Shown here: piece after piece, positions 763 to 24,168 of the stretch
How positions within the stretch are numbered: the stretch's first letter is position 1
How the letters are laid out: each line of letters opens with the position of its first letter
NCBI RefSeq assembly: GCF_003057965.1
Contig: NZ_CP020921.1
Location: 514,916-546,915, forward strand
Direction: 5' to 3'
DNA from: Thermodesulfobium acidiphilum
GTDB lineage: Bacteria; Thermodesulfobiota; Thermodesulfobiia; Thermodesulfobiales; Thermodesulfobiaceae
Length of the DNA: 32,000 nt
The notes under the pieces: model-generated
What the model was told of the DNA's origin: nothing
The model's database searches: none
What the model saw: only the letters and a program-made list of their open reading frames with translations
Program-made: the position numbers and the translations under genes

Positions 763-1571
763 TGTTAAAAAGATTTTCTTTTGTTATCTTAATAGTATGT
801 GGGGTATTGTTTCTTTTTGCGGGAAGTAGGGTATTACATACTGATAGACCTCAAAATGACAACGAGCCGGTTAAGGAGGAAGTTGTAAACAATCAAAACG
901 AGAGTATTACTCCTAAAGCTAGTAACAAAAGAACAGCTAAAGAACAAAAAGTTGATGAAGCATCTAAAATTTATAGTTCAAGATATGAGATAGATCGAAC
1001 AAAAGGCAAAACTGTAGTTCTTACATTTGATGCGGGAGCTGATGGTAGTAGGTTACCTGAAATTCTAGATATTTTATCAGAAAATCACGTGAAGGCAACC
1101 TTTTTTCTTACCGGACCCTTTTGTGAAAGGTATCCTAACCTTGTTAAAAAAATTACGGCGTATGGTTTTGAAGTTGGAAATCATTCTTATGCTCATAAAG
1201 ATATGACAACAATGTCGAACGAAGCAATTAGAGAAGACATACTTAAAGCTCAAGAAATAATTATCAGAACTACTGGACAGGATCCAAGGCCATGGTTTAG
1301 ACCTCCTTATGGAGCCAGGGATGATAGGGTTAGAGAGGTATTAAAATCTTTGGGATACGAAACAGTTTATTGGACTATCGATTCTCTTGATTGGGAAGAT
1401 AACATGACTGTTGAAAGGGAAAAAAATAGAATATATAATAATCTTAAAGATGGAAGTATAATCTTACTTCATATCGGAAGTAAAACAACTCCAATAATTC
1501 TTTCGGAAATGATAAAGTACTTTATAGGCAAGGGTTATAGAGTTACAGATCTGTCAGGTGCTCTTAGATAA
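762..1571 (+). CDS. Polysaccharide deacetylase (NodB / CE4 family), N-terminally membrane-anchored
   Basis: The GTG start overlaps the secretin TAG by 1 nt. The N-terminus is hydrophobic (FVILIVCGVLFLFAG). NodB motifs are present: LTFDAGADG, NHSYAHKDM, WFRPPYGARD, IILLHIG. Confidence 0.8.
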   Translation: MLKRFSFVILIVCGVLFLFAGSRVLHTDRPQNDNEPVKEEVVNNQNESITPKASNKRTAKEQKVDEASKIYSSRYEIDRTKGKTVVLTFDAGADGSRLPEILDILSENHVKATFFLTGPFCERYPNLVKKITAYGFEVGNHSYAHKDMTTMSNEAIREDILKAQEIIIRTTGQDPRPWFRPPYGARDDRVREVLKSLGYETVYWTIDSLDWEDNMTVEREKNRIYNNLKDGSIILLHIGSKTTPIILSEMIKYFIGKGYRVTDLSGALR

Positions 1572-1586
1572 GTAAGGAGGGCGTAT

Positions 1587-2045
1587 ATGAAAATTCTTGT
1601 AGCTGTCGATGGCACCAAGTATTCTAGAGAGGCAGTTTTGTGGGCAGTTAAAATAGCTAAAAAAGAAAAGGATGCTAAAATAATAGCACTCTATGTTGAA
1701 AGGCAGCTTTCGAGGGAAGATTATTTATTATCTGATGATGAAATTGATCTTAAAATTGAAAAAAAAGCAAATGATATATTTGTAAAATCGTTTGAAGATA
1801 TAGATATTGAGGGTGTCGAAGTTGAAAGAATAGTAGAAAGGGGTAGTCCTGCATCAAAAATATTAGATGTTTCTGATAGGGAAGATGTAGATTTGATAGT
1901 TGTTGGAAATAGATCGAGATCAGGAATTAGCAATTTCTTTTTGGGATCGGTGTCTGACAAAGTTTTTACTTATTCAGTAAGACCTGTTCTTGTTGTAAAG
2001 ACAAGAGAAAAAGAACCTGAAATAGAAACAGTAGCTATAACTTAG
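1587..2045 (+). CDS. Universal stress protein (UspA family)
   Basis: AAGGAGGG Shine-Dalgarno lies at 1572-1579. The sequence starts MKILVAVDGT and has the C-terminal ATP-binding motif LIVVGNRSRSGISNFFLGSVSDKV. Confidence 0.8.
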   Translation: MKILVAVDGTKYSREAVLWAVKIAKKEKDAKIIALYVERQLSREDYLLSDDEIDLKIEKKANDIFVKSFEDIDIEGVEVERIVERGSPASKILDVSDREDVDLIVVGNRSRSGISNFFLGSVSDKVFTYSVRPVLVVKTREKEPEIETVAIT

Positions 2046-3135
2046 TTTTAAAGATATTTTTAGCTTCTTTGTAATTATCAATAAGAGAAAGCGTAATTTT
2101 TTCCCAGGAGAAATTTATTGCATAAGGTCTTGCTTTTTTTTCCAGTTCTGTTCTTGCATCTTTATTTTTAATCAAATAACATATTTTTTGTGCAAGATCA
2201 TTTGGATCGTTTGGTTCAACTAATAAACCATATTGACCATTTTTTAAAAGACTTCTAAAACCAGTGATGTTTGAAGCAACAACTGCTGTCCCGCATGAAA
2301 GTGCTTCTAGAATAGTCATACCGAAACTTTCGCCACCTAATGCTGGTGAACAAAATATCCAGGCTTTTGAGTATTCTCTTGCAAGGTCTTCTTCGCTTAA
2401 TTCTCCAAGAAACTTTATGCCATCAAGATCTTGAAATTTGTTAATTCTTTTTTCAGTAGAATATCCAGCAATTCTAAGTTGCGCATCAGGGAATTTTTTG
2501 AAAATTTTATTCCATGCTCTTAATAGCACATCAAGCCCTTTTCTTTTTTCAAGTCTTCCAACAAAAAGTATTGTCGGTTGTTGAAATTTTTCAGAGGGGG
2601 CAAATATGTCAATATTAACTCCATTTGGTATGATTTTAAAATCTCCATTAATATATTGTTCTGCAAAGTGCATTGATGCTTCTGAAACAGCAATTTTAAC
2701 ATTTATCCTTTCGGAAAATTTTTTTGAAATTGGTTTAAACCATTCAAAGGGGAAAGGTATATCAGAATAGGCGTGAAAAGTACCTACTATTGGTTTATTT
2801 ATAGTAAATATAGAAAAAAGAGATGGACCTGGTGCAAATGGTTCGTGTATGTGCCATATATCGAAGTTTTCTTTAAGCAAAAGTATTTTTCCGAGAGCTC
2901 CTGGGGTAGGTGCAAGTCTTGCTATAGAACCATTTGTCATAAAAGGAAAAGATCTACCTACTGTGTGAAATCTTGAGTGATCAATATTGTAGGCAAGTGG
3001 TTTTCCTGGTTCTGCAGGAGCAATTATGTGCGTTTCTATGTTGTATTTGTCAAAGAATTTCTGTAGAAAAAAAAGGTGAGTATTAACTCCTCCTTTAAAG
3101 GAGAAAGAGTATGGGCTGACAAGGGCTACCTTCAT
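2035..3135 (-). CDS. pimA: GT4 glycosyltransferase, PimA-like (putative phosphatidylinositol alpha-mannosyltransferase)
   Basis: It resembles my recollection of mycobacterial PimA along its full length: MKVALVSPYSFSFKGGVNTHL, NGSIARL, WHIHEPFAPGPS, PIVGTFHAY, KIAVSEAS, IPNGVNIDIF, GGESFGMTILEALSCGTAVVASN (GT4 E-x7-E region). Its ATGA start overlaps the upstream acyltransferase stop. The GT4 family call is firm; the sugar and acceptor specificity are inferred. Confidence 0.7.
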   Translation of the reverse strand: MKVALVSPYSFSFKGGVNTHLFFLQKFFDKYNIETHIIAPAEPGKPLAYNIDHSRFHTVGRSFPFMTNGSIARLAPTPGALGKILLLKENFDIWHIHEPFAPGPSLFSIFTINKPIVGTFHAYSDIPFPFEWFKPISKKFSERINVKIAVSEASMHFAEQYINGDFKIIPNGVNIDIFAPSEKFQQPTILFVGRLEKRKGLDVLLRAWNKIFKKFPDAQLRIAGYSTEKRINKFQDLDGIKFLGELSEEDLAREYSKAWIFCSPALGGESFGMTILEALSCGTAVVASNITGFRSLLKNGQYGLLVEPNDPNDLAQKICYLIKNKDARTELEKKARPYAINFSWEKITLSLIDNYKEAKNIFKTKL

Positions 3136-3998
3136 TCGTAATCATCTCCAATCCAATTGGGTTGAAAGATAAACCATTGTGTTGGACTGATCTTTATCAT
3201 TTCTTCTAGATTTTTTATTAATAAATTTGTTATTTCTTCCTTTGAACTTTCACTTTTATACTCTATTTCTTTGAAGTATATTTGATATTTTTTGTTTAAT
3301 CTATACAAACCAGCTATAAAAAGTTTTGGGTTAGTTCTCTTTATTAAAATTGAAGGTCCATCGTTGAAGATACATTCTCTTCCAAAAAATGTTGTTTTTA
3401 TTCCGTGTTTTGTTAAGTTTCTGTCGACTACAAGTGCTATTACATTGCCTTTTTTTAACTCTTTTAAAGACTTTATTCCAGTAGATTCATTAAGTGGAAT
3501 TGTTTCTAATCCAGCTTTTTCTCTTGTCCATTTAAAAAATTTAAACAGCCATTTGGGCTTTATTGACTCAGCTACTGCAAATGTTTTTTTGTTACACTCT
3601 TTTGATATTGATGATATTATGTAAGACCCTAGGTCCCAATTGCCAAAGTGAGCAGTAATAACAACTATGCCTTTATCATTTGCTTTTAGAAAACAATTTC
3701 TTAATATTGAATATGATTCTTGAAAGTTATTGATAAAGTATTTAGTAAATTTTATTAAAAGCGGCAATAAAATTATTTCAAGATAATAAATTGAGTAATT
3801 ATAAAAGTTTTGACTGACAAGAATATTTAACTCTTTTTCGCTTAAATTTGGAAATAAATTTTTAAATCTTAATTTTGCTAAACGAAATCCTTTTTTATGA
3901 AGTGATTTCATAAAAAAGGAAATAGGACGTGCAAAAAACCTTATATTTTCGAATATAAAATAACACAGAAAAATTTTAATCCTTTCTTTAAAAAACAT
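3132..3998 (-). CDS. Lysophospholipid/lipid A-type acyltransferase (LpxL/HtrB/PatA family), copy 1
   Basis: It has the HX4D catalytic motif ITAHFGNWD about 117 aa from a hydrophobic N-terminus, and the family-typical C-terminal PTQWFIFQPNW. It sits between the CDP-alcohol transferase and the pimA-like gene, as patA does in mycobacteria. Confidence 0.7.
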   Translation of the reverse strand: MFFKERIKIFLCYFIFENIRFFARPISFFMKSLHKKGFRLAKLRFKNLFPNLSEKELNILVSQNFYNYSIYYLEIILLPLLIKFTKYFINNFQESYSILRNCFLKANDKGIVVITAHFGNWDLGSYIISSISKECNKKTFAVAESIKPKWLFKFFKWTREKAGLETIPLNESTGIKSLKELKKGNVIALVVDRNLTKHGIKTTFFGRECIFNDGPSILIKRTNPKLFIAGLYRLNKKYQIYFKEIEYKSESSKEEITNLLIKNLEEMIKISPTQWFIFQPNWIGDDYE

Positions 3999-4050
3999 TC
4001 TTATGCCTTACTTTAAGAGAGTTTAAAATTCCTGACAAGGATATAGCTTT

Positions 4051-4629
4051 TCAATTTTGTTTATATCCCTTGAATGCTATTAAAATTCTTTGAAAAGTTG
4101 TAAATATCGAAAGTATTGTAAGTATTATAAGTCCCTGTAATAAATAGCCAGTTGCCAAAAACACAACTAGCAATAAAAGCCTTTCTGGTCTTTGCATAAG
4201 TCCACCCTTGATAGGAACATTGTCGCATTCTGCTCTTGCCTTCGAGTAAGATATCATGTAAGAAAAAACCATTGATAAAAAAGAGAAAATTATAATAAGA
4301 TTATTAGTATTTATGATTCCATATATGGCTATAAAAGTAAAAATAAAGCCTTCAGATAGCCTATCAAGAGTTGAATCTAAAAAACCTCCAAATTTGGTTA
4401 TTTTCCCGGAAATTCTTGCAACCAACCCATCTACAGAGTCGAATGAAACTGCAATTAATAAAAGCAAAGCGCTAATTATATTTGGAAGAAATATAATTGA
4501 AAGTGATGCAAGAAAGGTTGTTATAGTGCAAAAAATAGTTATAGAATTTGGAGAAATATTCATTTTTGATAAAAGTTTTGCTATAGGATAAATAATTGGT
4601 TTTATTAATTTTCTTTTATCTATTTCCAT
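4051..4629 (-). CDS. CDP-alcohol phosphatidyltransferase, putative phosphatidylinositol-phosphate (PIP) synthase
   Basis: The complete signature D-x2-D-G-x2-A-R-x8-G-x3-D-x3-D is present in FDSVDGLVARISGKITKFGGFLDSTLDRL. The protein is multi-pass hydrophobic. The substrate assignment is inferred from operon context with ino1. Confidence 0.75.
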   Translation of the reverse strand: MEIDKRKLIKPIIYPIAKLLSKMNISPNSITIFCTITTFLASLSIIFLPNIISALLLLIAVSFDSVDGLVARISGKITKFGGFLDSTLDRLSEGFIFTFIAIYGIINTNNLIIIFSFLSMVFSYMISYSKARAECDNVPIKGGLMQRPERLLLLVVFLATGYLLQGLIILTILSIFTTFQRILIAFKGYKQN

Positions 4630-5350
4630 TTATCAGTTTGCTACCTATTTTTTGTGCGATATTTTTTATATCTGAATTTAGTCTTGTTTTAGCAATTCTT
4701 ATATGATCCTTAACACTCCAAAACTCTCCATATGCTCTGGTTTGTCTATTTATAATAGCGTTTTTCACGTCTTCGAGATTTTTTATACTTTTGGGGAACA
4801 AAGTGTATGCACTTCCTATTGTGTCCAGCGTATGAGAATCAGTACCGGCAAGTTCTGCCAATTTTAAAATTTTATTTAGTTCTATTACCTTTTGCCTGAC
4901 TACTCTACCAGCAAGCGTAGGATTTATTATTTCTATTGCATCTGGTTTTGGAAAGGTTTCTTTTTTAAATATATTTTTTATACAACGAAGTGAGACGCTA
5001 TACGTTAAAGGACTCATTGGATGAGGAAGAACTATTATTCCGCCTGATTCATACGTTATTTCTATAGTTTTATAAATACTGGTAAATTTCCTTATGTGTT
5101 TGTCTATAAAAAGACAAATTATGTGACCTTGTAGGGTAGTTACTTCAACTCCAGGAACTACAATTATTCCATATTTTTCTCCTAATTCAACAGCCTTTAG
5201 GGATCCCTTTATATTGTCATGATCTGTTATGGCAATTATTTTGAGATCCGTATAGTTTGCTACATATCTAACTATTTCTTCCGGTGACGCTATTCCATCG
5301 CTGAAACTGCTGTGTATGTGAAGATCGGCTTTAACAAAATTTTTATCCAT
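4616..5350 (-). CDS. PHP-domain metal-dependent phosphoesterase (TrpH/YciV-like), copy 1
   Basis: PHP motifs are present: DLHIHSSFSDG, IIAITDHDNIKG, PGVEVTT, VLPHP, AGTDSH. It overlaps the upstream gene by 8 nt and the downstream gene by 14 nt. Confidence 0.75.
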   Translation of the reverse strand: MDKNFVKADLHIHSSFSDGIASPEEIVRYVANYTDLKIIAITDHDNIKGSLKAVELGEKYGIIVVPGVEVTTLQGHIICLFIDKHIRKFTSIYKTIEITYESGGIIVLPHPMSPLTYSVSLRCIKNIFKKETFPKPDAIEIINPTLAGRVVRQKVIELNKILKLAELAGTDSHTLDTIGSAYTLFPKSIKNLEDVKNAIINRQTRAYGEFWSVKDHIRIAKTRLNSDIKNIAQKIGSKLINGNR

Positions 5351-6119
5351 TTTTTATCTCCATTGGCAAAAAAATATACCACTGTTGTGGATAAGTTTTT
5401 ACGTATTTTTCAAAATAATTTACCCATTCTTGCATTGTGGCTTTGTAGTCCTTTTTTGGCTTAATATATTCTTCTATGTAGCAATCAAAACTAAATGGTT
5501 GCTTCCTGATTATAAATACTGGTAGAATTGGACACTGCCTTGAAGATGCTATCTGAAAAGCTGCTTTCGGAAAAGGAATTTTATGATTTAAAAAATTTAT
5601 ATATTCAGATGGATGATTTGAAGCTATATCACTAAGCATACATAAAATTTGATTTTTCTTAAGCGAGCTTATTATTTCTCTTAATCCACCTTTTGCAGGA
5701 ATCACATCAAAGCCAATTCTTGAACGGATTAATTTTATTAAATGACCAGCAAAAGGGAAATCAAGGTTTGCAACAACTTTTAATTTGATACCTCTGTGTT
5801 CAAATAAACTTCCTGCATCCCAGTTGCCTATATGTGCCGTATTCACTATTACCCCTCTTTTCAAAGATAAAGCTTCATCAAGTCTTTCTAAATTAAAAAA
5901 ATTTATATTAAAACTCTTTTTATTTAAAACTAATACTAATACTTCGTATATATAGTCGCTATATGATACAAGAGCTTCTTTGGCAAGCGTTTCATAATCT
6001 GGATGATTGGATGCATTGCCTATTATTTTATAGTTGTTTAATATAATTTCCCTCTTTTTTTTATTATCCCAATAAATACCAAAAATAACTCTTTTAATTA
6101 TTTTTTTTATTAATAACAG
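5343..6119 (-). CDS. LpxL/HtrB/PatA-family acyltransferase, copy 2 (N-terminus extended beyond the listed ORF; proposed CTG start)
   Basis: Listed ORF 5343..5864 starts at a TTG only 9 codons before the catalytic NTAHIGNWD (HX4D). The same frame stays open for 89 more codons, to a stop at 6134-6132. That extension encodes family-like sequence (REIILNNYKIIGNASNHPDYETLAKEALVSYSDYIYE...LERLDEALSLKRG) with no ATG/GTG/TTG. AAAGGGAG (6133-6126) is followed by 6 nt and then CTG (6119-6117), 1 nt after the ino1 stop. Confidence 0.6.
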   Translation of the reverse strand: MLLIKKIIKRVIFGIYWDNKKKREIILNNYKIIGNASNHPDYETLAKEALVSYSDYIYEVLVLVLNKKSFNINFFNLERLDEALSLKRGVIVNTAHIGNWDAGSLFEHRGIKLKVVANLDFPFAGHLIKLIRSRIGFDVIPAKGGLREIISSLKKNQILCMLSDIASNHPSEYINFLNHKIPFPKAAFQIASSRQCPILPVFIIRKQPFSFDCYIEEYIKPKKDYKATMQEWVNYFEKYVKTYPQQWYIFLPMEIKNG

Positions 6120-6120
6120 A

Positions 6121-7185
6121 TTATTCTCCCTTTATAAAACTTTCAAGCATTGCTCTTGCTTGTGTGTCAGGATATTGTACTGGGGGGCTTTTCATGAGGT
6201 ATGCGCAAGCGCTGATTATTGGCCCACCTAATTTTCTATCTTTTGCTAACTTTACCAGCCTTAGTGCATCAACTATTATTCCCGCAGAATTTGGGGAATC
6301 CCATACCTCTAATTTGCATTCTATATTCAATGGGACTTCACCAAAAGCTTTGCTTTCTATCCTTATATATGCCCATTTCCTATCATGTAACCATGGAATA
6401 TAGTCTGAGGGCCCTATGTGTATATTTTCTTCTGACATAGGTTCTGGCATTAATGAGTTTACAGCATTTGTTTTGCTAATCTTTTTTGATTCCAGTCTTT
6501 CTCTTTCTAGCATATTTAAGAAATCCAAATTACCCCCAACGTTGAGTTGGAACGTTCTCTCTATTTCAAGACCCCTGTCAAGGCAAATTTGAGTAAGGGC
6601 CCTATGTAAAATTGTAGCACCAAGCTGAGATTTTATGTCGTCACCTATTATTGGCAAATTTTTGTCTTCAAATTTCTTTGCCCAATCACTATTGCTTGCT
6701 ATAAAAACGGGAATCGCATTAATAACGCCTAGATTTGCTTCTAATGCACAGTTCATGTAGAATTCTGTAGCTTTTTGACTCCCCACAGGTAAATAGTTTA
6801 TTAAAACATCTGCCTTTGATTCTTTTAAAACTTTTACTACATCAACTGGTTCTTTTTTCGATTCTATAATTGCTTTTGCAGCATATTTGCCAATTCCATC
6901 ATTCGTGTGTCCTCTCATAACAGTTACGCCTAAGTTTGGAACGTCATGAAGCTTTATGGTATTATTAGGCGCTGTAAATATGGCTTCAGAGAGATCTTTG
7001 TCTACTTTTCTTTCGTCAATATCAAAGGCGGCCACGAAACGAATATTTTCTAATTTATATGGACCAATCTTTTCATGAATTAAACCGATGGGTTTTTTGT
7101 GTGAGTTTTTATAAAATTCAACACCTTGCACTAAAGAGGAGGCACAATTCCCAACCCCAACTATTGCAACTCTTATTTCTTGCAT
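6121..7185 (-). CDS. ino1: myo-Inositol-1-phosphate synthase (MIPS)
   Basis: The N-terminal Rossmann motif is IRVAIVGVGNCASSLVQG. The length (354 aa from this start) and overall pattern fit short bacterial/archaeal MIPS. I place the start at ATG 7185-7183, preceded by GAAAGGAG and 1 nt after the upstream TAA. The 25-codon extension of listed ORF 6121..7260 would overlap the upstream gene. Confidence 0.8.
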   Translation of the reverse strand: MQEIRVAIVGVGNCASSLVQGVEFYKNSHKKPIGLIHEKIGPYKLENIRFVAAFDIDERKVDKDLSEAIFTAPNNTIKLHDVPNLGVTVMRGHTNDGIGKYAAKAIIESKKEPVDVVKVLKESKADVLINYLPVGSQKATEFYMNCALEANLGVINAIPVFIASNSDWAKKFEDKNLPIIGDDIKSQLGATILHRALTQICLDRGLEIERTFQLNVGGNLDFLNMLERERLESKKISKTNAVNSLMPEPMSEENIHIGPSDYIPWLHDRKWAYIRIESKAFGEVPLNIECKLEVWDSPNSAGIIVDALRLVKLAKDRKLGGPIISACAYLMKSPPVQYPDTQARAMLESFIKGE

Positions 7186-7186
7186 T

Positions 7187-7843
7187 TTATAACTCCTTTC
7201 TTTTTTGAAAACTTGCTGATATTTTATAAAAGATATTCTCAAGAAAAAAATATTTTCCAACTATTTTGGCTTCACTCAAAATTTTTACCAAATTTTCTCT
7301 CGAAACGTTTAGTTCTGTTTCAACATAAGAATAGGTTTTACCGAATCCTTCTATTGAGTGTGCATCACTTCCTGCTGCAACCACCTTTCTATTTTTTGTT
7401 GCAAACTCTTTAGCAAGAAAATTTTCATAGGGCAACGATTTAGCATTAAACGATTCAATTATATCAAATTCATCTAAGAGAGCTCTTTTAACAGAATTTT
7501 TTAATGCACTTCTAAAAAAGGAAAACGGATGAGGAAGATATACAAGAGCATTCTGCGCTCTAATTTGCTTTATAGTTTCAGATGCGCTCAGATATGGTTT
7601 AATTTCTTTTTGTAGGAATAGTCCAATTATTTCTCCTTGAGTAGTAAGAATTTCTTCTCCTATAATAATTTCAATATCCCTTATTCTATCCCTTGCAATC
7701 AGTGCCCCCTTTATCGTGTTGTGATCGGTAATGGCGATTACGTTTATGCCACTTAGTATAGACTTTTTGTGCAGTTGTTCTATAGAAATATTTGAATCTT
7801 TAGAAAAATCAGTATGAACGTGTAAGTCTATTTTATATTTCAT
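7187..7843 (-). CDS. PHP-domain metal-dependent phosphoesterase, copy 2 (paralog of 4616..5350)
   Basis: PHP motifs are present: DLHVHTDFSKDS, VIAITDHNTIKG, IGEEILTTQGEIIGLF, YLPHP, AAGSDAHS. The motif order matches copy 1. Its ATGA start overlaps the nth stop. Confidence 0.75.
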   Translation of the reverse strand: MKYKIDLHVHTDFSKDSNISIEQLHKKSILSGINVIAITDHNTIKGALIARDRIRDIEIIIGEEILTTQGEIIGLFLQKEIKPYLSASETIKQIRAQNALVYLPHPFSFFRSALKNSVKRALLDEFDIIESFNAKSLPYENFLAKEFATKNRKVVAAGSDAHSIEGFGKTYSYVETELNVSRENLVKILSEAKIVGKYFFLENIFYKISASFQKRKEL

Positions 7844-8487
7844 TTATTATTAGAAATTCCTACCTTTGGACAAATATCGTTTAATATACATTCCTGACAT
7901 TTAGGATTTTTTGCAGTACATATTGTTCTTCCGTGTTGATTTAACATATATGAGAATTTAAACCAATTTTTTTCTTCCACATTTGAAGAAATCTCTCTTT
8001 CAACAGTTATTGGATCGGCTTTTTTTACAAGAGCTAAGCGCATAGCCAATCTCTTAACGTGAGTGTCAACGACTATAGCGCTTTTATTAAATACATAGCC
8101 TAAAATAGCATATGACGACTTTCTTCCTAATCCAGGAATTTTAATAAGGTCATTGAAATTATTTGGTAAAGTTGAATTGAAGTGTTTGATTATATACTTT
8201 GCCCCTTCCTTAAGAGACTTTGCCTTATTGTGATAGAATCCGGTTGAATGTATTGCTTCTTCTAATTCCTCTAATGATATTCTGTCTAAATCTTCAAAGC
8301 TTTTTATACGTTTAAACAATTCTTTAGTTACCGTATTTACTTTTTCGTCTGTGCACTGAGCCGCAAGAACAATGGCCACATAAAATTCGAAAGGAGTGTT
8401 AAAGTTCAGGTTACTTTTTATTTCAGGATAGAGAATATTAAGTCTATGTAATATTTCGGAATAGATATTAGTTTTGTTTAAAACCAT
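7840..8487 (-). CDS. nth: Endonuclease III (DNA glycosylase/AP lyase)
   Basis: It has the HhH-GPD pattern LIKIPGLGRKSSYAILGY...VVDTHVKRL and the C-terminal 4Fe-4S cluster motif CTAKNPKCQECILNDIC. Confidence 0.9.
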   Translation of the reverse strand: MVLNKTNIYSEILHRLNILYPEIKSNLNFNTPFEFYVAIVLAAQCTDEKVNTVTKELFKRIKSFEDLDRISLEELEEAIHSTGFYHNKAKSLKEGAKYIIKHFNSTLPNNFNDLIKIPGLGRKSSYAILGYVFNKSAIVVDTHVKRLAMRLALVKKADPITVEREISSNVEEKNWFKFSYMLNQHGRTICTAKNPKCQECILNDICPKVGISNNK

Positions 8488-8492
8488 TTTCG

Positions 8493-10658
8493 TTATCTGT
8501 TTGTCCTTTTTTGTTTTCCTGAATGTTTGTTACTTTTAGAATCTGATGAATTTTCTGAAAGAGCCTTTATGCTTAAATTTATTTTTCCGTTGCTTTCAAG
8601 ATCAAGAACTTTCACTGTCACCTCATCTCCTAACTTTAAAACATCTTCAACGTTTTTGACTCTTGTTTTCGAGAGTTCAGAAATGTGGACCAGGCCCTCT
8701 TTTCCAGGAGCAATTTCAACAAGTGCTCCAAAGTTGAATATCTTAGTTACCTTTCCAATGTAAATCTGTCCTGGAACTATTGGTTTAGTTATGTTATTTA
8801 TGATTTCGATGGTTCTATTTAGACCTTCTCTGGAGGTAGATGCTATATAAATTTTACCATCTTGTTCAATACTGATCTTTGAGCCAGTTTCTTCTATGAT
8901 TTTCTTGATTATTTTTCCACCTTGCCCTATTACATCACTTATCTTATCCGGATTAATCTGAATCATTTCTATTCTTGGAGCATAGTTTGAAAGTACTTCT
9001 CTGGGATGTGATATAGCTTGATTCATTTTTTCTATGATTACCTTTCTGCCTTCATTTGCTTTTTTAAGCGCTATTGAAAGAGCGTCAATGGGTATACCAG
9101 GTACCTTTACGTCTAGTTGTAGCGCACTAACTCCGTCAATAGTTCCGGTAACCTTAAAATCCATATCCCCTAATGCATCTTCCAAACCAGTAATGTCAGA
9201 TAGAACAACAATTTCGTCATTTTCATAAATAAGTCCCATAGCTATTCCGCCAACGTGTTTTGAAATAGGAACACCTGCATCCATCAGAGATAAAGAAGAA
9301 CCGCATGTTGAAGCCATAGAAGATGAGCCATTTGATTCAAGTATTTCAGAGACAACTCTTATAGTGTAGGGAAAATCAGATTCTTTTGGTAAAACTGGCA
9401 ATAAAGCTTTTTCTGCCAGGGCACCATGGCCAATTTCTCTTCTTCCCGGCCCCCGTGATGGTCTTGCTTCACCTACGCTAAAACCTGGAAAATTATAATG
9501 ATGCATATATCTTTTTCTGATTTCATTGCTTGATTGATAAAGGGTATCTATTATCTGAGAATCTTCCTGTGTTCCCAGTGTTGCAATGCTAAGTGCCTGT
9601 GTTTGACCTCTGGTAAAAAGTGCTGAGCCATGTGCTCTTGGTAATAAACCCACTTGAATGGATATCGGTCTAATTTCATCTAAATTTCTACCATCAACTC
9701 TTTTTTTGTTTTTTATCACATAGTTTCTTATTATCTTTTTTAATCTATTTTGGAAAGCCTGGTTTATTAACAAGAGATTATTTTCTACAAATTCAGTACC
9801 AAATCTTTCAGACAAAGTAGACAAAATTTCGTCTTTTAATTCCTTTTCTAAATTTTCAAAATCCTGTTTTGTTTTGAGAGGAAATCTATCCGTGATGCTA
9901 CTCGTTAAAATAGAATCTAATGCGTTGATAATGTCTTCTGTTGGTTCTTGCAAATAGACTGAACTCTTAGTTGGATTTATTAAGGATATTAATTCTTTTT
10001 GAAGGTCGCATATTTTTGTTATTGCCGGGAGAGCATAATTAATTACTTCAATTATCTTATCTTCAGGGATCTCGTTAAAACTTCCTTCTATCATTAGAAT
10101 GTTGTTTTCTTTGCCTACTACTACGATATCTATGTCACTTTTTTCGATCTGATCAATTGTGGGGTTTAAAATGAACTTTTTGTCGATTTCGCCAACTCTA
10201 ACAGCGCCTACAGGTCCATTAAAAGGAATGTCTGAAATACATAAAGCTGCACTGGAAGCGATGATAGAAAGCACATCTGCTGGAAAATCATTATCTATCG
10301 AGAGGGGAAAGGAAGAGATACAGACATCATTTCTTAATCCTTTTTGAAACAACGGTCTGATAGATCTGTCTATAATTCTACTATACAGAATAGCTCTTTC
10401 GCTTGGTCTTCCTTCTCTTTTAAAAAACCCCCCAGGAAACTTTCCAGCAGCATACATCTTTTCATCAAAGTCAACTACCAGAGGCATGAAGTCTATATCA
10501 CTTCGGGCTTCTTTAGACATTGTTGCTGCACTAAAAACTATAGTATCTCCTGATCTAACAGTAACCGAACCGTTTGCTTGCTTTGCTAAAAGTCCCGTTT
10601 CAATATTTATAACTATGCCTTCTGCTATTTCTTTTGTGATACTGTGTACTCCGTTCAT
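8493..10658 (-). CDS. pnp: Polyribonucleotide nucleotidyltransferase (PNPase)
   Basis: The 721-aa product has two RNase PH-like domains (LAKQANGSV..., RVDGR...IRPI..., GSSSMASTCGSSLSLMDAGVP), then a KH domain (GQGGKIIKKIIEETG) and an S1 domain (GKVTKIFNFGALVEI). Confidence 0.95.
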   Translation of the reverse strand: MNGVHSITKEIAEGIVINIETGLLAKQANGSVTVRSGDTIVFSAATMSKEARSDIDFMPLVVDFDEKMYAAGKFPGGFFKREGRPSERAILYSRIIDRSIRPLFQKGLRNDVCISSFPLSIDNDFPADVLSIIASSAALCISDIPFNGPVGAVRVGEIDKKFILNPTIDQIEKSDIDIVVVGKENNILMIEGSFNEIPEDKIIEVINYALPAITKICDLQKELISLINPTKSSVYLQEPTEDIINALDSILTSSITDRFPLKTKQDFENLEKELKDEILSTLSERFGTEFVENNLLLINQAFQNRLKKIIRNYVIKNKKRVDGRNLDEIRPISIQVGLLPRAHGSALFTRGQTQALSIATLGTQEDSQIIDTLYQSSNEIRKRYMHHYNFPGFSVGEARPSRGPGRREIGHGALAEKALLPVLPKESDFPYTIRVVSEILESNGSSSMASTCGSSLSLMDAGVPISKHVGGIAMGLIYENDEIVVLSDITGLEDALGDMDFKVTGTIDGVSALQLDVKVPGIPIDALSIALKKANEGRKVIIEKMNQAISHPREVLSNYAPRIEMIQINPDKISDVIGQGGKIIKKIIEETGSKISIEQDGKIYIASTSREGLNRTIEIINNITKPIVPGQIYIGKVTKIFNFGALVEIAPGKEGLVHISELSKTRVKNVEDVLKLGDEVTVKVLDLESNGKINLSIKALSENSSDSKSNKHSGKQKRTNR

Positions 10659-10930
10659 TATGCAGTTTCTCTAAGACCAAGTTTGCCGATCAGCTTTCTA
10701 TATCTATTTATATCTTTATTCTTCACATAAGATAACAATCTCTTTCTTTGGTTTACCATCTTTAAAAGCCCTCTTTTTGAGTGAAGGTCGTTTTTGTGTT
10801 CTTTTAAATGCTCTGTAAGTTTTTCAATGCGATAGGTTAATATCGCTACCTGTACTTCTGCCGAACCAGTGTCATTCTCATGCAGGCCAAAATCTTCTAT
10901 TACCTTTTTCTTAAGTTCTTTGTCTAGCAT
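10658..10930 (-). CDS. rpsO: 30S ribosomal protein S15
   Basis: Diagnostic stretches are [58 protein letters not shown] lies 5 nt upstream of the ATG. The stop overlaps the pnp ATG (TAATG). Confidence 0.95.
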
Positions 10931-10957
10931 AAAATCCTCCTTTAAATAATAAATCCA

Positions 10958-11000
10958 CTATCTGAGCATTGCCCATTGTTATCCCGCAATGCCCAGACAG
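10958..11000 (-). promoter_or_regulatory. rpsO 5'-leader hairpin (candidate S15 autoregulatory element)
   Basis: The minus-strand RNA reads CUGUCUGGGCAUUGC-[GGGAUAACAAUGG]-GCAAUGCUCAGAUAG. It forms a 15-bp stem (13 Watson-Crick plus 2 G.U pairs). On the plus strand the two G.U pairs become A.C mismatches, so the structure is strand-specific. It ends 17 nt before the rpsO GGAGG. Confidence 0.4.
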
Positions 11001-11051
11001 GGTAAGTTTGATAACTTTATGATAATATTGAGTAGTCAAACATTCAAAACT

Positions 11052-11078
11052 ATTCTATCATAAATGTGTAATATTCAA
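11052..11078 (-). promoter_or_regulatory. Candidate rpsO promoter (TTGAAT-15 nt-TGaTAGAAT)
   Basis: On the minus strand, -35 TTGAAT lies at 11078-11073 and an extended -10 TGnTAGAAT at 11060-11052. This is hexamer matching only, in AT-rich DNA. Confidence 0.25.
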
Positions 11079-11100
11079 AAAGTGAGGAGTATATTATATA

Positions 11101-11505
11101 TTGATTTTAGGAATCGATGTTGGAAGTTGTAAAATTGGTTATGCAATTTTAGATGATAAGTATAATGTTTTTTCAAAAGGGATAATACTACTTAATGACT
11201 TCAAAAAAGAGTTTTTAAAATTTATAAAAAGTTATGAGATTGAAGTTGTTGCTGTTGGAAGTGGAACTGGGCATAAAAAGGTGATGGAGTTAATAGATGA
11301 GCTCAATTTGGATTTAAAAGTTGTGATAATATCAGAAAGAAATACTTCGGTACAAGCCAAATGGAGATATATTAATTCGCTAAAAGGATTCAAAGGTTTT
11401 TTTTGTAAGTTTTTTGGATATTTGGATAAGCCAGTTGATGACATTTCAGCTGTAATAATAGCTGAAAGATACTTAAATGAAAAGAGGAAAAAGAGTGAGA
11501 CCTGA
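11101..11505 (+). CDS. YqgF/RuvX-like RNase H-fold nuclease (putative pre-16S rRNA nuclease)
   Basis: The N-terminal [18 protein letters not shown] matches the acidic-triad strand of the YqgF family, and the size (134 aa) fits. TTG start with GAGGAG upstream. The family call is tentative. Confidence 0.5.
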
Positions 11506-11959: not shown

Positions 11960-12979
11960 TTGTTGTTTCTTATATGTCTGTTTTCTTTTTTTCTTTCACT
12001 CTTGAACACTAAATTTGTAATTTTTTTATCTGAAAAATTGGAAATTTACGATAAGCCTGATAAGAGAAAGATTCACAGTAAATTAACATCCCGCCTTGGA
12101 GGATTTGGATTTTTTGTACCTTTTCTAATTACATTATTCTTATACTCCCTTTTGGTAAAGGGATTTGAAATTACTGATTTCCTGATTTGCGTTTTTCCAA
12201 TATTTTTCCTTGGGCTATATGACGATCTTTTTGGAATTAATCCTATTATAAAATTAGCAGCCCAAATTTTTGCCTCGTTTATAGCTTTTAATTTAGGTTT
12301 TCGAATAGACTATATTTATTTTCCATTTGTAGGGTATCTTTTTTTTGGAGGATTGTCGTTGTTTTTGACAATTTTTTGGCTTGTAGGGTTATCTAATGCG
12401 CTAAATTTGGTAGATGGTATGGATGGCTTGGCATCGGGAGTTGCTATTTTAATACTTTTATCAATGGCAATAGTTTCTTATGTTCTGGATAGAAATTTTG
12501 TTTTTATAATTTCGATAATACTTTTGTTTTCTATGACAGGTTTTTTTGTTTTCAATATAAATCCTGCTAGAATATTTATGGGAGATAGTGGCTCCTTGAC
12601 TGTGGGTTTTATAATTGGTCTAATCTCTATTAGTGGGTTTATGAAGGGCCTTACACTTGTAACGCTATTTTCAATTATTATTATGCTAATAATCCCTGTT
12701 GCAGATACTTTTTGGGCTATTATAAGAAGATCGGTATCTGGAAGATCAATTTTTTCACCTGATAAAGGTCACTTTCATCATATGCTTTTGGAAAAGGGCT
12801 GGAGTGTAAGGAAGATCAATTCTTTGTTTAGAGGAATCACTGTAATGGGATCTCTGGTATTCTTTTTTGTCTTTTTGCCTCAAGAATATTTTTTGTTTAC
12901 AGCTTCTTTTTTGATTTTTGGTTATCTATTTTTATTTTTACTTGAATCTATTGTTATTGGAGTGAGAAAAAGTGCTTAA
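11960..12979 (+). CDS. Polyprenyl-phosphate N-acetylhexosamine-1-phosphate transferase (MraY/WecA/TagO family)
   Basis: The protein is polytopic and carries the family motifs DDLFGI, NALNLVDGMDGLASG, FMGDSGSL and HFHH. TTG start, 9 nt after GAGGTG. Confidence 0.8.
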   Translation: MLFLICLFSFFLSLLNTKFVIFLSEKLEIYDKPDKRKIHSKLTSRLGGFGFFVPFLITLFLYSLLVKGFEITDFLICVFPIFFLGLYDDLFGINPIIKLAAQIFASFIAFNLGFRIDYIYFPFVGYLFFGGLSLFLTIFWLVGLSNALNLVDGMDGLASGVAILILLSMAIVSYVLDRNFVFIISIILLFSMTGFFVFNINPARIFMGDSGSLTVGFIIGLISISGFMKGLTLVTLFSIIIMLIIPVADTFWAIIRRSVSGRSIFSPDKGHFHHMLLEKGWSVRKINSLFRGITVMGSLVFFFVFLPQEYFLFTASFLIFGYLFLFLLESIVIGVRKSA

Positions 12980-14141
12980 AGCTTTGCTGATTTTTGGGAC
13001 TAGACCTGAAGCTATTAAAATGGCTCCTCTTTTTTTGGAATTAAAGAACTCGAAGTACTTTGAACCTGTCGTGGTTGTTACTGCTCAGCACAGAGAAATG
13101 CTAGATCAGGTTTTGAAAATATTTAATATTGAACCAGATTTTGATCTTGACATAATGAAACCGGGTCAGAGCCTTGAAGGAATAACTATTAGAGCATTGG
13201 AAGGTTTATGTAATATTATGAAGAGGGTTAATCCATCTATTGTTCTTGTTCAGGGAGATACAACGACCACTTATGTGGGAGCATTAGCAGCATTTTATCA
13301 CAGAATAGCAGTTGGACATGTAGAGGCAGGTTTGAGAACTTATGATAAATTCAACCCTTATCCTGAAGAAGTTAATAGAAGGATGACTACCTGTCTTGCT
13401 GATTTACATTTTGCACCTACTATTATTTCTTTTAATAACCTGATCAAGGAAAATGTCAAAAAGGAAGATATATTTATAACCGGGAATACCGTTATAGATT
13501 CTTTACTTCATATATCTAAAAGAGATTATGATTTTCCTCCAATTTTAAATTCAATAATAAATTCTCCTTTAAGAAAGATTTTAGTTACTGCTCATAGAAG
13601 AGAAAATTGGGATGAAATGAAAAATATTTTTCATGCAATAAAAAAGTTAGTTGAGAGCTTTGACGACATACATATAATTTTTCCTGTACATATGAACCCA
13701 AAAATAAGAGTTGATGCTCAAAATATTTTGGGCAATAATTCAAGAGTATCTTTGCTTGAACCCCTTGACTATGAAGCTTTTATACATGTTATGAAAAACT
13801 GTTACATCATACTTACAGATTCTGGAGGCGTTCAAGAAGAAGCCCCCTCTCTTGGTGTTCCTGTGGTCGTTATGAGAAAGACTACAGAGAGACCTGAGGC
13901 GCTCAAGGCAAATGCAGTTGTTTTAAGCGGAACTGATGGAGAAAAAATTTACAATACTGCAGCTAAACTCTTGAGTGATAAAACTTTTTATCTTTCTATG
14001 AAAAAGAAGCTCAACCCCTATGGAGATGGGAGAGCTTCTTTTAGAATTTTGAAATCTCTAGAATATTTTTTTAAACTTAGCTCAGAAAGGCCTGTTGATT
14101 TTAGATACAATTATGAAGATGGTTTACTATTAGAAACCTAA
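12972..14141 (+). CDS. wecB: UDP-N-acetylglucosamine 2-epimerase (non-hydrolysing)
   Basis: Motifs: IFGTRPEAIKMAPL, VLVQGDTTTT, GHVEAGLRT, PEE.NR, TDSGGVQEEAPSLGVPVVVMR.TERPE. Confidence 0.9.
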   Translation: MLKALLIFGTRPEAIKMAPLFLELKNSKYFEPVVVVTAQHREMLDQVLKIFNIEPDFDLDIMKPGQSLEGITIRALEGLCNIMKRVNPSIVLVQGDTTTTYVGALAAFYHRIAVGHVEAGLRTYDKFNPYPEEVNRRMTTCLADLHFAPTIISFNNLIKENVKKEDIFITGNTVIDSLLHISKRDYDFPPILNSIINSPLRKILVTAHRRENWDEMKNIFHAIKKLVESFDDIHIIFPVHMNPKIRVDAQNILGNNSRVSLLEPLDYEAFIHVMKNCYIILTDSGGVQEEAPSLGVPVVVMRKTTERPEALKANAVVLSGTDGEKIYNTAAKLLSDKTFYLSMKKKLNPYGDGRASFRILKSLEYFFKLSSERPVDFRYNYEDGLLLET

Positions 14142-14771: not shown

Positions 14772-15108
14772 TTTTTCTTTCCTCCATTTCAAAAAATTTT
14801 GATATTATACTAAAATGATACCATCAAATTACTATTTAAGTTACATTGCTCAGTTTTTATTTAATTTTTATATTATAAATATTCAAAAATACCTATTAAT
14901 TTAATTTGTGATATAAATTATTTATTTGTATAAATCTTTTTTATTTAGAAAATTAAGACTTTTCTGACAGAACTAGTGACATATGAGATTGGTGAAACTA
15001 AAATATTTATTTAGTAATTGGAATTTGAAGTGTTTAGTGAAAGTATAATTTTATTATTGACATGATAAGGAAAATCTATTAATCTATAAATGATTTTTGT
15101 AAGTAGGG

Positions 15109-23029: not shown

Positions 23030-23041
23030 TTCGAGGTGAGT

Positions 23042-24112: not shown

Positions 24113-24168
24113 TTTGTATAATATATTTATTGAGTTTTATATTCTTAAAATACAAAGGGGTAGAAAAG

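Follow-up and report, generated by a model that had tools for sequence, protein, structure and literature searches.

Gene content of the locus

The window, a 32,000-nt stretch of Thermodesulfobium acidiphilum DNA, contains an operon in which two genes for PHP-family proteins lie among genes of inositol-lipid synthesis. The operon order in Thermodesulfobium is PHP2, MIPS, short acyltransferase, PHP1, phosphatidylinositol phosphate (PIP) synthase, PatA-like acyltransferase, PimA-like mannosyltransferase. The genes of interest are:

2035–3135, minus strand: PimA-like GT4 mannosyltransferase (GT4 Pfam domains; PimA structure match)
3132–3998, minus strand: PatA-like acyltransferase (PF03279, 103.8 bits)
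4051–4629, minus strand: CDP-alcohol phosphatidyltransferase (CAPT) of the PIP/AIP-synthase type (PF01066), presumed to make the PHP substrate
4616–5350, minus strand: PHP1, PHP + PHP_C protein, 244 aa (Pfam); best PIP phosphatase candidate
5343–5864, minus strand: short lysophospholipid/lipid A-type acyltransferase, 173 aa from a TTG start (PF03279, 68.9 bits)
6121–7185, minus strand: MIPS, myo-inositol-1-phosphate synthase (PF01658, 122.9 bits; TIGR03450, 533.7 bits)
7187–7843, minus strand: PHP2, PHP + PHP_C protein, 218 aa, of a second, larger subfamily (Pfam); possible second lipid inositol-phosphate phosphatase
7840–8487, minus strand: nth (ORF, NCBIfam/Pfam), context upstream of PHP2
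8493–10658, minus strand: pnp (ORF, NCBIfam/Pfam), context upstream of PHP2
10658–10930, minus strand: rpsO (ORF, NCBIfam/Pfam), context upstream of PHP2

The two PHP ORFs are as the preliminary description gave them, and its account of their boundaries is correct. PHP1 overlaps both of its neighbors, by 8 nt with the upstream acyltransferase gene (5343–5350) and by 14 nt with the downstream CAPT gene (4616–4629), while the PHP2 stop codon (TAA, 7189–7187) is separated by one base from the MIPS start codon. This start is the ATG at 7185 and not the TTG at 7260, as judged from the Shine-Dalgarno context and the start in a relative; the Shine-Dalgarno sequence, AAAGGAG, is located within the 3’ end of PHP2. 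At its other end, PHP2 overlaps nth by 4 nt (7840–7843). The rpsO, pnp and nth genes (7840–10930) are tightly spaced on the same strand as PHP2, and a relative with a 77% identical PHP2 keeps their order.

The highest-scoring NCBIfam models for the CAPT were AIP synthase (146.5 bits, cutoff 180) and PIP synthase (145.7 bits, cutoff 170), both below cutoff. With 53 hydrophobic windows, it is an integral membrane protein. The GT4 protein matches the PimA structures 4n9w and 2gej over its full length (189 bits, E 1.5e-54), compared with only 56 bits for MshA. The top NCBIfam model for the PatA-like protein is the phosphatidylinositol mannoside acyltransferase NF005919, at 110 bits (cutoff 209). 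The short acyltransferase covers only positions 120–290 of the PF03279 profile. No stop codon interrupts its frame between the TTG start and the MIPS stop codon, and the sequence there resembles an acyltransferase N-terminus, but this upstream frame contains no ATG, GTG or TTG start; a relative has a 187-aa version that starts with GTG. No PgpA-type gene was found in the 32,000-nt window.

Sequence and structure of PHP1 and PHP2

Both proteins match the PHP domain (PF02811; 40.1 bits for PHP1 and 42.8 bits for PHP2, cutoff 26.4) and the PHP_C domain (PF13263; 37.5 and 31.8 bits, cutoff 21.3). Aligned with BLASTP, they are 29% identical over 180 residues (E 3e-17), which is far beyond chance, and the motif series previously seen to be shared between them corresponds to invariant metal-ligand columns. 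The ligand positions (D9, H11, H13, D18, H44, E69, H110, N143, D171 and H173 in PHP1 numbering) are essentially invariant across all groups of relatives, the main exception being H11Q in five linked sequences. The AF2 model of PHP1 is a confident PHP fold (pLDDT 94). Neither a transmembrane segment nor a signal sequence was found in PHP1 or PHP2. The C-terminal helix of PHP1 (residues 213–243) is amphipathic and may associate the protein with the membrane, though a basic amphipathic tail also occurs outside the inositol-lipid-linked clade.

The two had been described as paralogs. Their similarity is clear, but the relationship is not recent – both resemble proteins from other phyla more than they resemble one another. 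PHP1 shares 91% identity with a PHP protein of Thermodesulfobium narugense and 46–48% with its closest matches outside the genus, which include proteins from Chloroflexota metagenome-assembled genomes (MAGs). PHP2 shares 43–47% identity with proteins that make up a different and larger subfamily. In neighbor-joining trees, made without bootstrap, PHP1 and PHP2 occupy different parts of the family.

Gene neighborhoods of the PHP1 clade

In a survey of gene neighborhoods seeded from PHP proteins, a check that had been proposed beforehand, PHP genes were kept beside PIP synthase (PIPS), ino1 and PimA genes in distant relatives. PHP1 homologs of 37–48% identity were found within clusters of PIPS, MIPS, LPLAT and GT4 genes. 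A genome scan gave 80 loci, across which linkage to inositol-lipid genes rises with similarity to PHP1, and the neighbor-joining tree groups PHP1 and the linked proteins in a single clade. PIP synthase and/or PimA lies within about 5 kb at 46 of the 49 sampled loci of this clade, which include Chloroflexota, Dormibacteria, Goldbacteria and others; three members are unlinked (L023, L051 and L057). There are at least eight gene orders in the clade. The most frequent has PHP directly upstream of GT4, and the smallest is a bare PHP-PIPS pair, seen in Ktedonobacteria (L030, L046 and L050). Unsupervised clustering of the neighborhood ORFs gave as recurrent families: PHP, GT4, PIPS, LPLAT, MIPS, an ArsR-like regulator, and a thioredoxin-like protein. 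No other recurrent phosphatase family was found by this clustering.

The PHP2 subfamily

At E ≤ 1e-5, PHP2 has 1194 relatives. Members of its subfamily are mostly unlinked to inositol-lipid genes: PIPS or AIPS was within 5 kb in only 5 of 25 assessable loci, and six contexts inspected individually held no inositol-lipid enzymes. Because most sampled members are unlinked, PHP2 is not assignable by family membership alone. Its adjacency to MIPS was seen only within Thermodesulfobium.

The subfamily also includes PimA::PHP fusion proteins, encoded beside PIP synthase and MIPS. Few members of this group are named, and these are from Actinomycetota MAGs. One ORF of 634 aa (L098) has GT4, PHP and PHP_C in a single protein, a Rosetta-stone fusion. 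All of the best 120 relatives listed for it (57–94% identity) combine the two GT4 domains with PHP or PHP_C, and 119 of them list PHP and PHP_C together. At three loci (L098, L174 and L175) the order is PIPS-MIPS-[GT4::PHP], and the fused GT4 part is PimA-like (155 bits to PimA vs 70 to MshA). PHP2 shares 38% identity with the fused PHP domain (E 2e-45) and 43% with the PHP protein encoded in a CAPT-PHP-CarS operon (E 2e-50).

Overlapping operons of an inositol-phosphate-type CAPT, a PHP gene and a CarS-like gene are found in GroEL-bearing bacteria, and CarS-PHP-AIPS-DUF63 clusters are found on contigs that also carry FEN1 and class V FBPase, both archaeal markers. Every PHP-adjacent CAPT tested had an inositol-phosphate-type enzyme (AIP synthase or Bacteroides-type PIP synthase) as its top model, with scores under the NCBIfam equivalog cutoffs; the PgsA and PssA models were never the top match. 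Some loci have rival phosphatases: in L173 a HAD gene separates MIPS from AIPS, and in L175 PIPS overlaps with a PAP2_3 gene.

Comparison with known systems

TrpH/YciV-type RNase AM (7ug9, 9etk) and the 3’,5’-nucleotide bisphosphate phosphatase Cv1693 (2yb1) have the PHP fold and the same N-terminal motifs (DxHxH...D and TDH) as PHP1 and PHP2. However, the matches are confined mainly to the first ~80 residues, these enzymes are about 280–290 aa in length rather than 218–244, and the window proteins differ in having a PHP_C domain and in genomic context. Structurally, the PHP1 model is most similar to the structural-genomics proteins TM0559 (2anu) and BVU_3505 (3e38), with Foldseek E values of 1e-11 to 1e-13 and TM scores of 0.66–0.72; the best PDB sequence match is also among these. 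They share the compact PHP + PHP_C architecture of PHP1 but are only 21–25% identical and have no assigned function.

The joining of a glycosyltransferase to a phosphatase in PimA::PHP resembles the synthase/phosphatase pairs for trehalose-6-phosphate, sucrose-6-phosphate and mannosyl-3-phosphoglycerate, where a glycosyltransferase and a phosphatase that serve one pathway are encoded side by side or as a single protein. There, HAD-family phosphatases work on soluble sugars, whereas the fusion has a PHP domain and a presumed membrane-lipid substrate.

BT_1525 of Bacteroides thetaiotaomicron converts PIP to PI, the reaction proposed here for the PHP proteins (PMC9246714). Like the PHP genes, it lies inside an inositol-lipid cluster beside PIP synthase and MIPS, and its role was first suggested by that position. 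It belongs to the PgpA family, unrelated in fold to the PHP barrel with its multinuclear metal site, and its role is genetically proven, as PIP accumulates in the knockout (PMC9246714), while the PHP proteins are candidates by context. Analogous removal of a head-group phosphate after a CDP-alcohol transferase reaction is carried out by the phosphatidylglycerophosphate phosphatases PgpA, PgpB (PAP2) and PgpC (HAD), so that several unrelated families can serve one such step (PMC9385802). Their substrate and folds are different, and none is a PHP protein.

Proposed role of the PHP proteins

Because the genes of their relatives in many microbes adjoin those for the same lipid enzymes or form fusions with them, PHP1 and PHP2 are strong candidates for PIP phosphatases. 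We infer substrate and catalytic activity from this genomic context, through guilt by association; the operon is likely to encode bacterial-route phosphatidylinositol mannoside synthesis in which a PHP-family metallophosphatase takes PIP to PI. Inositol-1-phosphate from MIPS would be joined to CDP-diacylglycerol by the membrane PIP synthase, giving PIP. A cytoplasmic, peripherally membrane-bound PHP metallophosphatase would strip the inositol phosphate, and the resulting PI would be mannosylated by the PimA-like transferase and the product acylated by the PatA-like acyltransferases. The earlier proposal of a PHP protein as PIP phosphatase gains from neighborhood conservation and the PimA fusions, as an assignment by context. 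PHP1 is most likely this enzyme. PHP2 probably also dephosphorylates an inositol-phosphate lipid, as an isozyme or with mannosylated or acylated PIP as its substrate. The best reading is that PHP1, and probably PHP2, acts on PIP or mannosylated PIP.

The same enzymes could work in another order, with PimA mannosylating PIP first and PHP then dephosphorylating mannosyl-PIP. The abundance of PimA::PHP fusions and the common placement of PHP directly upstream of GT4 in the PHP1 clade would suit this order, and glycosyltransferase-phosphatase fusions acting on phosphorylated acceptors have precedent. We consider it unlikely: GT4 is absent from the minimal PHP-PIPS pairs and from the CAPT-PHP-CarS operons, so the PHPs there must use PIP itself, if they are in the pathway. 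Also against it, mycobacterial PimA uses PI in vitro, and the inositol C3 phosphate adjoins the C2 mannosylation site.

A soluble substrate, either inositol-1-phosphate (IMPase-like, releasing free inositol) or a glycosyl-inositol-phosphate (MshA2-like, in mycothiol synthesis), is decidedly improbable, even though PHP2 directly abuts MIPS, PHP phosphatases are not known to use other than soluble substrates, and the window GT4 is a weak match to MshA (94.8 bits, cutoff 462.5). The GT4 proteins are PimA-like (189 and 155 bits to PimA vs 56–70 to MshA), and it is the membrane CAPT that accompanies PHP in every architecture, whereas several linked loci lack MIPS. Linked PHP2 relatives accompany PimA, inositol-phosphate-type CAPTs and CarS, not MIPS alone, and so lend no support to the idea that the second copy dephosphorylates soluble inositol phosphate. 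An IMPase would also be superfluous, as the PIP route takes inositol phosphate directly (PMC9246714).

There is very little likelihood that the PHP proteins serve as housekeeping phosphoesterases of nucleotides or RNA (of the RNase AM/pAp phosphatase type or in another role) with an incidental place in the operon, the link for PHP2 then being to the upstream pnp and nth. RNase AM and the Cv1693 pAp phosphatase are the nearest characterized relatives by sequence and fold, PHP2 is downstream of pnp and nth, and the contexts of its family are mostly unrelated. However, the equivalog scores of 64 and 59 bits are far under the cutoffs of 400 and 375, and PHP1 and PHP2 are ~50–70 residues shorter than either enzyme. 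Given the 46 of 49 linkage in the PHP1 clade over shuffled gene orders and the PimA fusions, the operon place cannot be incidental. Hydrolysis of another by-product or precursor (pyrophosphate from CDP-diacylglycerol synthesis, or CDP-diacylglycerol), tuning flux and not finishing the head group, is scarcely credible: CarS-like cytidylyltransferases adjoin PHP in several loci, but CdsA/CarS is absent from the recurrent neighbors in the PHP1 clade and the fusions, and the partner in common is the inositol-phosphate-type CAPT.

We know of no characterized PHP enzyme that acts on a lipid, and a search of the available library gave no paper joining PHP-type enzymes to PIP dephosphorylation. The PIP phosphatase is called unknown or unidentified in reviews (PMC7502851; PMC9385802); with BT_1525 of the PgpA family already identified, the step is an orphan only outside the Bacteroides lineage (PMC9246714). 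As the window is from Thermodesulfobium and not a mycobacterium, the proposal is not extended to mycobacteria on these data. If it is true, the PHP family would fill the PIP to PI step that has lacked an identified enzyme outside Bacteroides.

Gene content of the inositol-lipid operon

The minus-strand ORFs from rpsO to a GT4 glycosyltransferase gene either overlap or lie very close together, in a window of low GC content (ca. 32%). They are, in order of transcription:

Genes of the operon region (window positions)
10930-10658, minus strand, rpsO (ORF)
10658-8493, minus strand, pnp (ORF)
8487-7840, minus strand, nth (ORF)
7843-7187, minus strand, PHP2 (Pfam PHP + PHP_C)
7185-6121, minus strand, MIPS, myo-inositol-1-phosphate synthase (Pfam/NCBIfam)
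5864-5343, minus strand, short acyltransferase (ORF)
5350-4616, minus strand, PHP1 (Pfam PHP + PHP_C)
4629-4051, minus strand, CDP-alcohol phosphatidyltransferase, PIPS (AIP-/PIP-synthase models)
3998-3132, minus strand, full-length acyltransferase, 288 aa (top NCBIfam match phosphatidylinositol mannoside acyltransferase)
3135-2035, minus strand, GT4 glycosyltransferase (PimA structures, 189 bits)

A phosphatidylinositol phosphate (PIP) synthase, a PatA-type acyltransferase and a PimA-like GT4 are thus encoded together, the combination that defines a phosphatidylinositol mannoside (PIM) operon. The CDP-alcohol phosphatidyltransferase (CAPT) at 4051-4629 scored on a par with the synthase models for PIP (145.7 bits) and its archaeal counterpart AIP (146.5 bits), and far lower with PgsA and PssA. 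Solved PimA structures matched the entire GT4 at 2035-3135 (189 bits, E 1.5e-54), and MshA reached only 56 bits. The MIPS is unambiguous by Pfam and NCBIfam, though under the strict equivalog cutoff. Since the CAPT, PatA, MIPS and GT4 assignments all score under their NCBIfam equivalog cutoffs, orthology to the mycobacterial PIM genes is not certain; judged by sequence, the PIP synthase, acyltransferase and GT4 are probable orthologs of pgsA1-patA-pimA. The operon logic is the same as in mycobacteria, here in a non-actinobacterial thermophile, but the Thermodesulfobium operon adds MIPS, a second acyltransferase and two PHP genes.

PHP1 overlaps both of its neighbors, as the preliminary description had stated, by 8 nt and 14 nt, and the reported spacing of 1 nt from the PHP2 stop to the MIPS ATG is also real, with a Shine-Dalgarno sequence within the 3’ end of PHP2. 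Promoter and terminator scans over 1500-11200 found sites no more frequent than in shuffled sequences, and so gave no basis for drawing operon boundaries. Phosphatases of the PgpA, PAP2, HAD and IMPase types were absent from the 28 window ORFs scanned, 20 of them outside the operon set.

The frame of the short acyltransferase is open upstream of its TTG start (5864) as far as the MIPS stop. This stretch (5865-6122, minus strand) encodes acyltransferase-like N-terminal sequence yet has no ATG, GTG or TTG; near 6045, ATT/ATA codons follow a Shine-Dalgarno-like site (AAGAGGG). It could represent a non-canonical start or a decaying N-terminus. In a relative, the short acyltransferase has a GTG-started version of 187 aa.

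Envelope-sugar genes lie near the operon (24130-25569, 11960-14141 and 23036-24112). These are a phosphomannomutase/phosphoglucomutase, a possible source of GDP-mannose; a WecA-like Glycos_transf_4 protein with a UDP-GlcNAc 2-epimerase; and a protein with an NAGPA phosphodiester-glycosidase domain.

The two PHP proteins

The preliminary description had reported two related PHP ORFs, and this was confirmed: they are 29% identical to each other (E 3e-17) and both match Pfam PHP (PF02811; PHP1 40.1 bits, PHP2 42.8 bits, gathering cutoff 26.4) and PHP_C (PF13263; 37.5 and 31.8 bits, cutoff 21.3). They are 91-99% identical to Thermodesulfobium narugense proteins.

Neither is assigned to a characterized PHP enzyme. 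Scores for RNase AM and 3’,5’-nucleoside bisphosphate phosphatase were 58.8 and 64.3 bits for PHP1 and 32.1 and 29.9 for PHP2, against equivalog cutoffs of 375 (NF047791) and 400 (NF041577) bits, and the matches were confined to about residues 3-90. For histidinol phosphatase HisJ (TIGR01856 and related models), PHP2 scored 26 bits against a cutoff of 90.2, and the sole match of PHP1 was NF004981, with 37.4 bits against 117. PHP1 and PHP2 are therefore filed under none of the characterized enzymes RNase AM, pAp phosphatase or HisJ, all of which score far under cutoff. The top NCBIfam match was the CehA/McbA family metallohydrolase domain (NF038032), a domain-level name with no defined substrate, and it also fell under its cutoff of 80 bits (PHP1 75.1, PHP2 58.5). 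No Pfam or NCBIfam match to PgpA, the family of Bacteroides BT_1525, was found for PHP1, PHP2 or the other scanned window ORFs.

The AF2 model of PHP1 (mean pLDDT 94.1, pTM 0.89) predicts the distorted (beta/alpha)7-barrel of the PHP superfamily followed by a 30-residue C-terminal helix, and all of its top 45 Foldseek matches in the PDB were either PHP proteins or polymerase PHP domains. Among solved structures it most closely resembles BVU_3505 and TM0559, structural-genomics proteins that are themselves uncharacterized, followed by RNase AM and the Cv1693 pAp phosphatase. Sequence similarity to any solved structure is weak (E 1e-7 or worse).

Alignment columns correspond to the His/Asp/Glu ligands of the superfamily – HxH, a third His/Asp, H, E, H, a seventh ligand, and DxH. 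The predicted ligand positions (D9, H11, H13, D18, H44, E69, H110, N143, D171, H173) are essentially invariant across linked, unlinked and PHP2-type groups, “linked” meaning a PIP synthase and/or PimA-like GT4 nearby. Asn143 sits at a position that we take to be His or Cys in other PHP enzymes. Position 76 splits the subfamilies, with His in the PHP1 type and mostly Glu in the PHP2 type. Five cluster-linked PHP1-clade proteins (L003, L022, L027, L029, L035) have Gln for H11 (DLQVH) and keep all other ligands, which suggests an altered metal site in this subgroup.

No transmembrane segments were found in PHP1 or PHP2, as would fit a cytoplasmic enzyme that acts on the membrane surface next to PIP synthase and PimA. 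The C-terminal helix of PHP1 is cleanly amphipathic: its hydrophobic face spans 120° and is bordered by Lys and Arg. A basic amphipathic tail was rejected as a marker of lipid-acting PHP proteins, as unlinked clades have similar tails (linked vs unlinked, mean maximum hydrophobic moment 0.55 vs 0.48, net charge +6.7 vs +6.1); for the same reason the helix lends a membrane role little weight.

The PHP1 clade is linked to PIP synthase

A protein search with PHP1 found 222 relatives (E<=1e-5). Identity does not exceed 48% outside the genus, where the few named relatives come from Chloroflexota, with two weak archaeal matches. Three homologs that were inspected (37-48% identity) all lie within clusters of PIP synthase, PimA-like GT4, acyltransferase and MIPS, in three gene orders.

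One genome per GTDB species was then scanned, giving 80 loci whose neighbors were identified by tblastn with the window proteins. As the surveys were seeded from PHP, the linkage counts describe neighbors of PHP genes. Linkage tracks similarity to PHP1: nearly all loci with at least 144 bits carry PIP synthase and GT4 no more than about 3 kb away, and most below about 125 bits have neither. In a neighbor-joining (NJ) tree, calculated without support values as were all trees here, PHP1 and the linked proteins form one clade in which 46 of the 49 loci are linked (the exceptions are L023, L051 and L057). PHP1 is thus co-inherited with the PIP/AIP synthase. The clade spans Chloroflexota classes, Dormibacteria, one Goldbacteria MAG and other MAGs, and has at least eight gene arrangements. 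PHP>GT4>PIPS is the most frequent order; the most compact one, found in Ktedonobacter racemifer and its relatives, has only PHP and PIPS together with an ArsR-like gene. Unsupervised clustering of all neighborhood ORFs in this survey revealed no other recurrent hydrolase.

An ArsR-like HTH regulator (ca. 121 aa) lies directly upstream as the first cluster gene in 23 loci (e.g. L008, L031, L050). The clusters it heads are inositol-lipid loci of Chloroflexota and Dormibacteria, including the minimal ArsR-PHP-PIPS loci. A thioredoxin-like protein (ca. 287 aa) follows the PIP synthase in nine loci.

Unlinked proteins of Anaerolineae and Patescibacteria form sister clades to the linked clade in the NJ tree. 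The Anaerolineae sister clade (L037, L061, L063, L072, L080) has no nearby PIP synthase, and a different GT4, with 45-70 bits to that of the window, directly follows the PHP gene. The arrangement hints that PHP and glycosyltransferase work as partners on a different substrate.

The PHP2 subfamily and PimA::PHP fusions

The PHP2 subfamily is far larger, with 1194 matches (E<=1e-5). Six inspected contexts of homologs ca. 45% identical to PHP2 contained no inositol-lipid enzymes, and outside the window PHP2 was seen to adjoin MIPS only in another Thermodesulfobium. A seventh context and a metagenome scan showed repeated ties to the inositol-lipid pathway. Co-inheritance of PHP2 with PIP/AIP synthase is seen only in Thermodesulfobium and some subclades of the family. 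A PIPS/AIPS-type transferase lies within 5 kb in 5 of the 25 metagenome-set loci that have 2.5 kb or more of sequence on each flank, loci that are not independent of each other; for a random gene we estimate well under 1%. All PHP-adjacent transferases tested matched inositol-phosphate-type models best (85-154 bits, under the curated cutoffs), the top model being AIP synthase, or the Bacteroides-type PIP synthase for L155 and L050.

One of these ties is gene fusion. L098 and L106 each encode a single protein of ca. 635 aa comprising GT4, PHP and PHP_C, and two further loci carry such genes.

Fusion genes (ca. 630 aa)
L098, 5240-7144
L106, 717-2645
L174, 7001-8893
L175, 7001-8866

The fusion family has at least 120 clusters at 90% identity in NCBI, ENA, JGI and Logan. 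The best 120 relatives listed (57-94% identity) all contain the two GT4 domains plus PHP, PHP_C or, in 119 cases, both. The few that are named come from Actinomycetota MAGs, Thermoleophilia among them. Three of the four loci have the order PIPS-MIPS-[GT4::PHP]; the L106 contig ends within MIPS. In the fusions, the GT4 half resembles PimA rather than MshA (155 vs 70 bits), and the PHP half is nearer PHP2 (38% identity, E 2e-45) than PHP1 (33%, E 1e-27). If the PHP proteins are PIP phosphatases, such fusions may physically couple mannosylation to dephosphorylation. The L175 locus, from Actinomycetota, also has a PAP2_3-family gene (4141-4950) that overlaps the PIP synthase start and may encode either a lipid phosphatase or an inositol-phosphoryl transferase, and a second PHP_C protein (14133-14798).

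Another group of loci joins PHP to a CDP-archaeol-synthase-type (CarS-like) cytidylyltransferase, as three overlapping genes or, in L097, as PHP-CarS.

CAPT-PHP-CarS-like loci
L093, 5384-7201
L100, 2427-4257
L111, 7172-8968
L097, 8001-9207 (PHP-CarS)

The PHP protein of this group is 43% identical to PHP2, and the group is sister to PHP2 plus L091 in the NJ tree. Its CarS gene and a Cpn60_TCP1 match had suggested that L093 was archaeal, but the syntenic L111 carries a true bacterial GroEL, so these contigs are bacterial, probably from CPR-like organisms. A CarS-like enzyme in bacteria is notable in itself.

Two clusters have the order CarS-PHP-(MIPS-HAD)-AIPS-DUF63, and L132 is a third CarS/PHP/AIPS cluster.

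Archaeal-looking clusters (FEN1 or class V FBPase on contigs)
L173, 7391-13626
L150, 7454-11697

We take the L173 contig to be archaeal from its FEN1 and, tentatively, that of L150 from its class V FBPase and DUF63. Both have DUF63 after AIPS. A HAD hydrolase gene in L173 follows MIPS and overlaps the AIP synthase start, making it a rival or additional phosphatase candidate at that locus.

On a contig of 2.5 kb, the closest relative of PHP2 outside Thermodesulfobium (L091, 3-2531; 47% identity) is flanked by thrS and an NAD kinase gene. In mycobacteria thrS is also upstream of the pgsA1 operon, probably a coincidence.

Proposed function

The PHP proteins would take off the phosphate that the CDP-alcohol transferase leaves on the head group, converting PIP to phosphatidylinositol. 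This is the most economical reading, because every other step of the clusters has an enzyme and, of the partners, only the transferase is common to the four architectures. The preliminary description had proposed both PHP genes as candidate PIP phosphatases, subject to conservation of their neighborhood, and on that point the proposal held up strongly – in the linkage of the PHP1 clade (46/49), the PimA::PHP fusions and the CAPT-PHP-CarS operons. From this genomic context, at least one of PHP1 and PHP2 is likely to be a PIP phosphatase. PHP1 is the stronger candidate within the operon, as its own clade is linked almost without exception. That PHP2 acts on an inositol lipid is put at an even chance or slightly less, since its subfamily holds PimA fusions yet is mostly unlinked.

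An unlikely variant in the order of steps has PimA acting first and the PHP protein dephosphorylating mannosyl-PIP; it is suggested by the fusions, and the PHP-PIPS pairs that lack a GT4 argue against it as a general rule. Action on a soluble inositol phosphate is improbable, given the PimA-like GT4s and the linked loci without MIPS. The related reading of the GT4s as MshA2-type enzymes that use soluble inositol phosphate was rejected, as they are PimA-like against solved structures. Other phosphatases compete for the role at single loci (the HAD in L173, the PAP2_3 protein in L175). An incidental housekeeping nuclease or nucleotidase is very improbable, and hydrolysis of PPi or CDP-DAG can be all but dismissed.

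Implications for inositol phospholipid synthesis

Outside Bacteroides, prokaryotic inositol-phospholipid synthesis has a single step with no assigned enzyme, the dephosphorylation of PIP (in archaea, of AIP). This step feeds the mycobacterial PIM/LM/LAM pathway, where it is ascribed to “an unknown phosphatase” (PMC7502851), and a review of archaeal lipids calls the AIP phosphatase “unidentified” (PMC9385802); these reviews date from 2020 and 2022. A “putative AIP phosphatase” was named in Saccharolobus without evidence (PMC10465181). The only identified enzyme is BT_1525 of Bacteroides, of the PgpA family, deletion of which causes PIP to accumulate (PMC9246714). The openly searchable literature yielded no link between PHP proteins and PIP, no PIM clusters in Chloroflexota, and no later identification of the mycobacterial phosphatase, a step that two PIM papers of 2026 do not mention.

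On a wider reading, to which we give even odds, small PHP + PHP_C proteins are the long-missing phosphatidyl- and archaetidyl-inositol-phosphate phosphatases across widely differing prokaryotes: Thermodesulfobium together with Chloroflexota and allies (PHP1 type); bacteria with PimA::PHP fusions, the few named being Actinomycetota MAGs including Thermoleophilia; probably CPR-like bacteria with CAPT-PHP-CarS-like operons; and some archaea with CarS-PHP-AIPS clusters. A PHP enzyme would then occupy the step that the non-homologous, PgpA-type BT_1525 performs in Bacteroides. These candidates do not by themselves identify the mycobacterial enzyme, nor does the evidence here extend to PHP proteins in mycobacteria.

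PHP1 and PHP2 are predicted to represent a subgroup of the PHP superfamily with a lipid head-group substrate, which to our knowledge would be the first lipid substrate in the superfamily. With clonable genes and a natural PimA fusion, this well-supported candidate family makes the question testable by simple reconstitution. It would also be evidence for PIM-type glycolipid operons well outside the Actinobacteria, in Thermodesulfobium, Chloroflexota, Dormibacteria and Goldbacteria, and would give a function to several subclades named only “PHP domain protein” or “TrpH-like phosphoesterase”.
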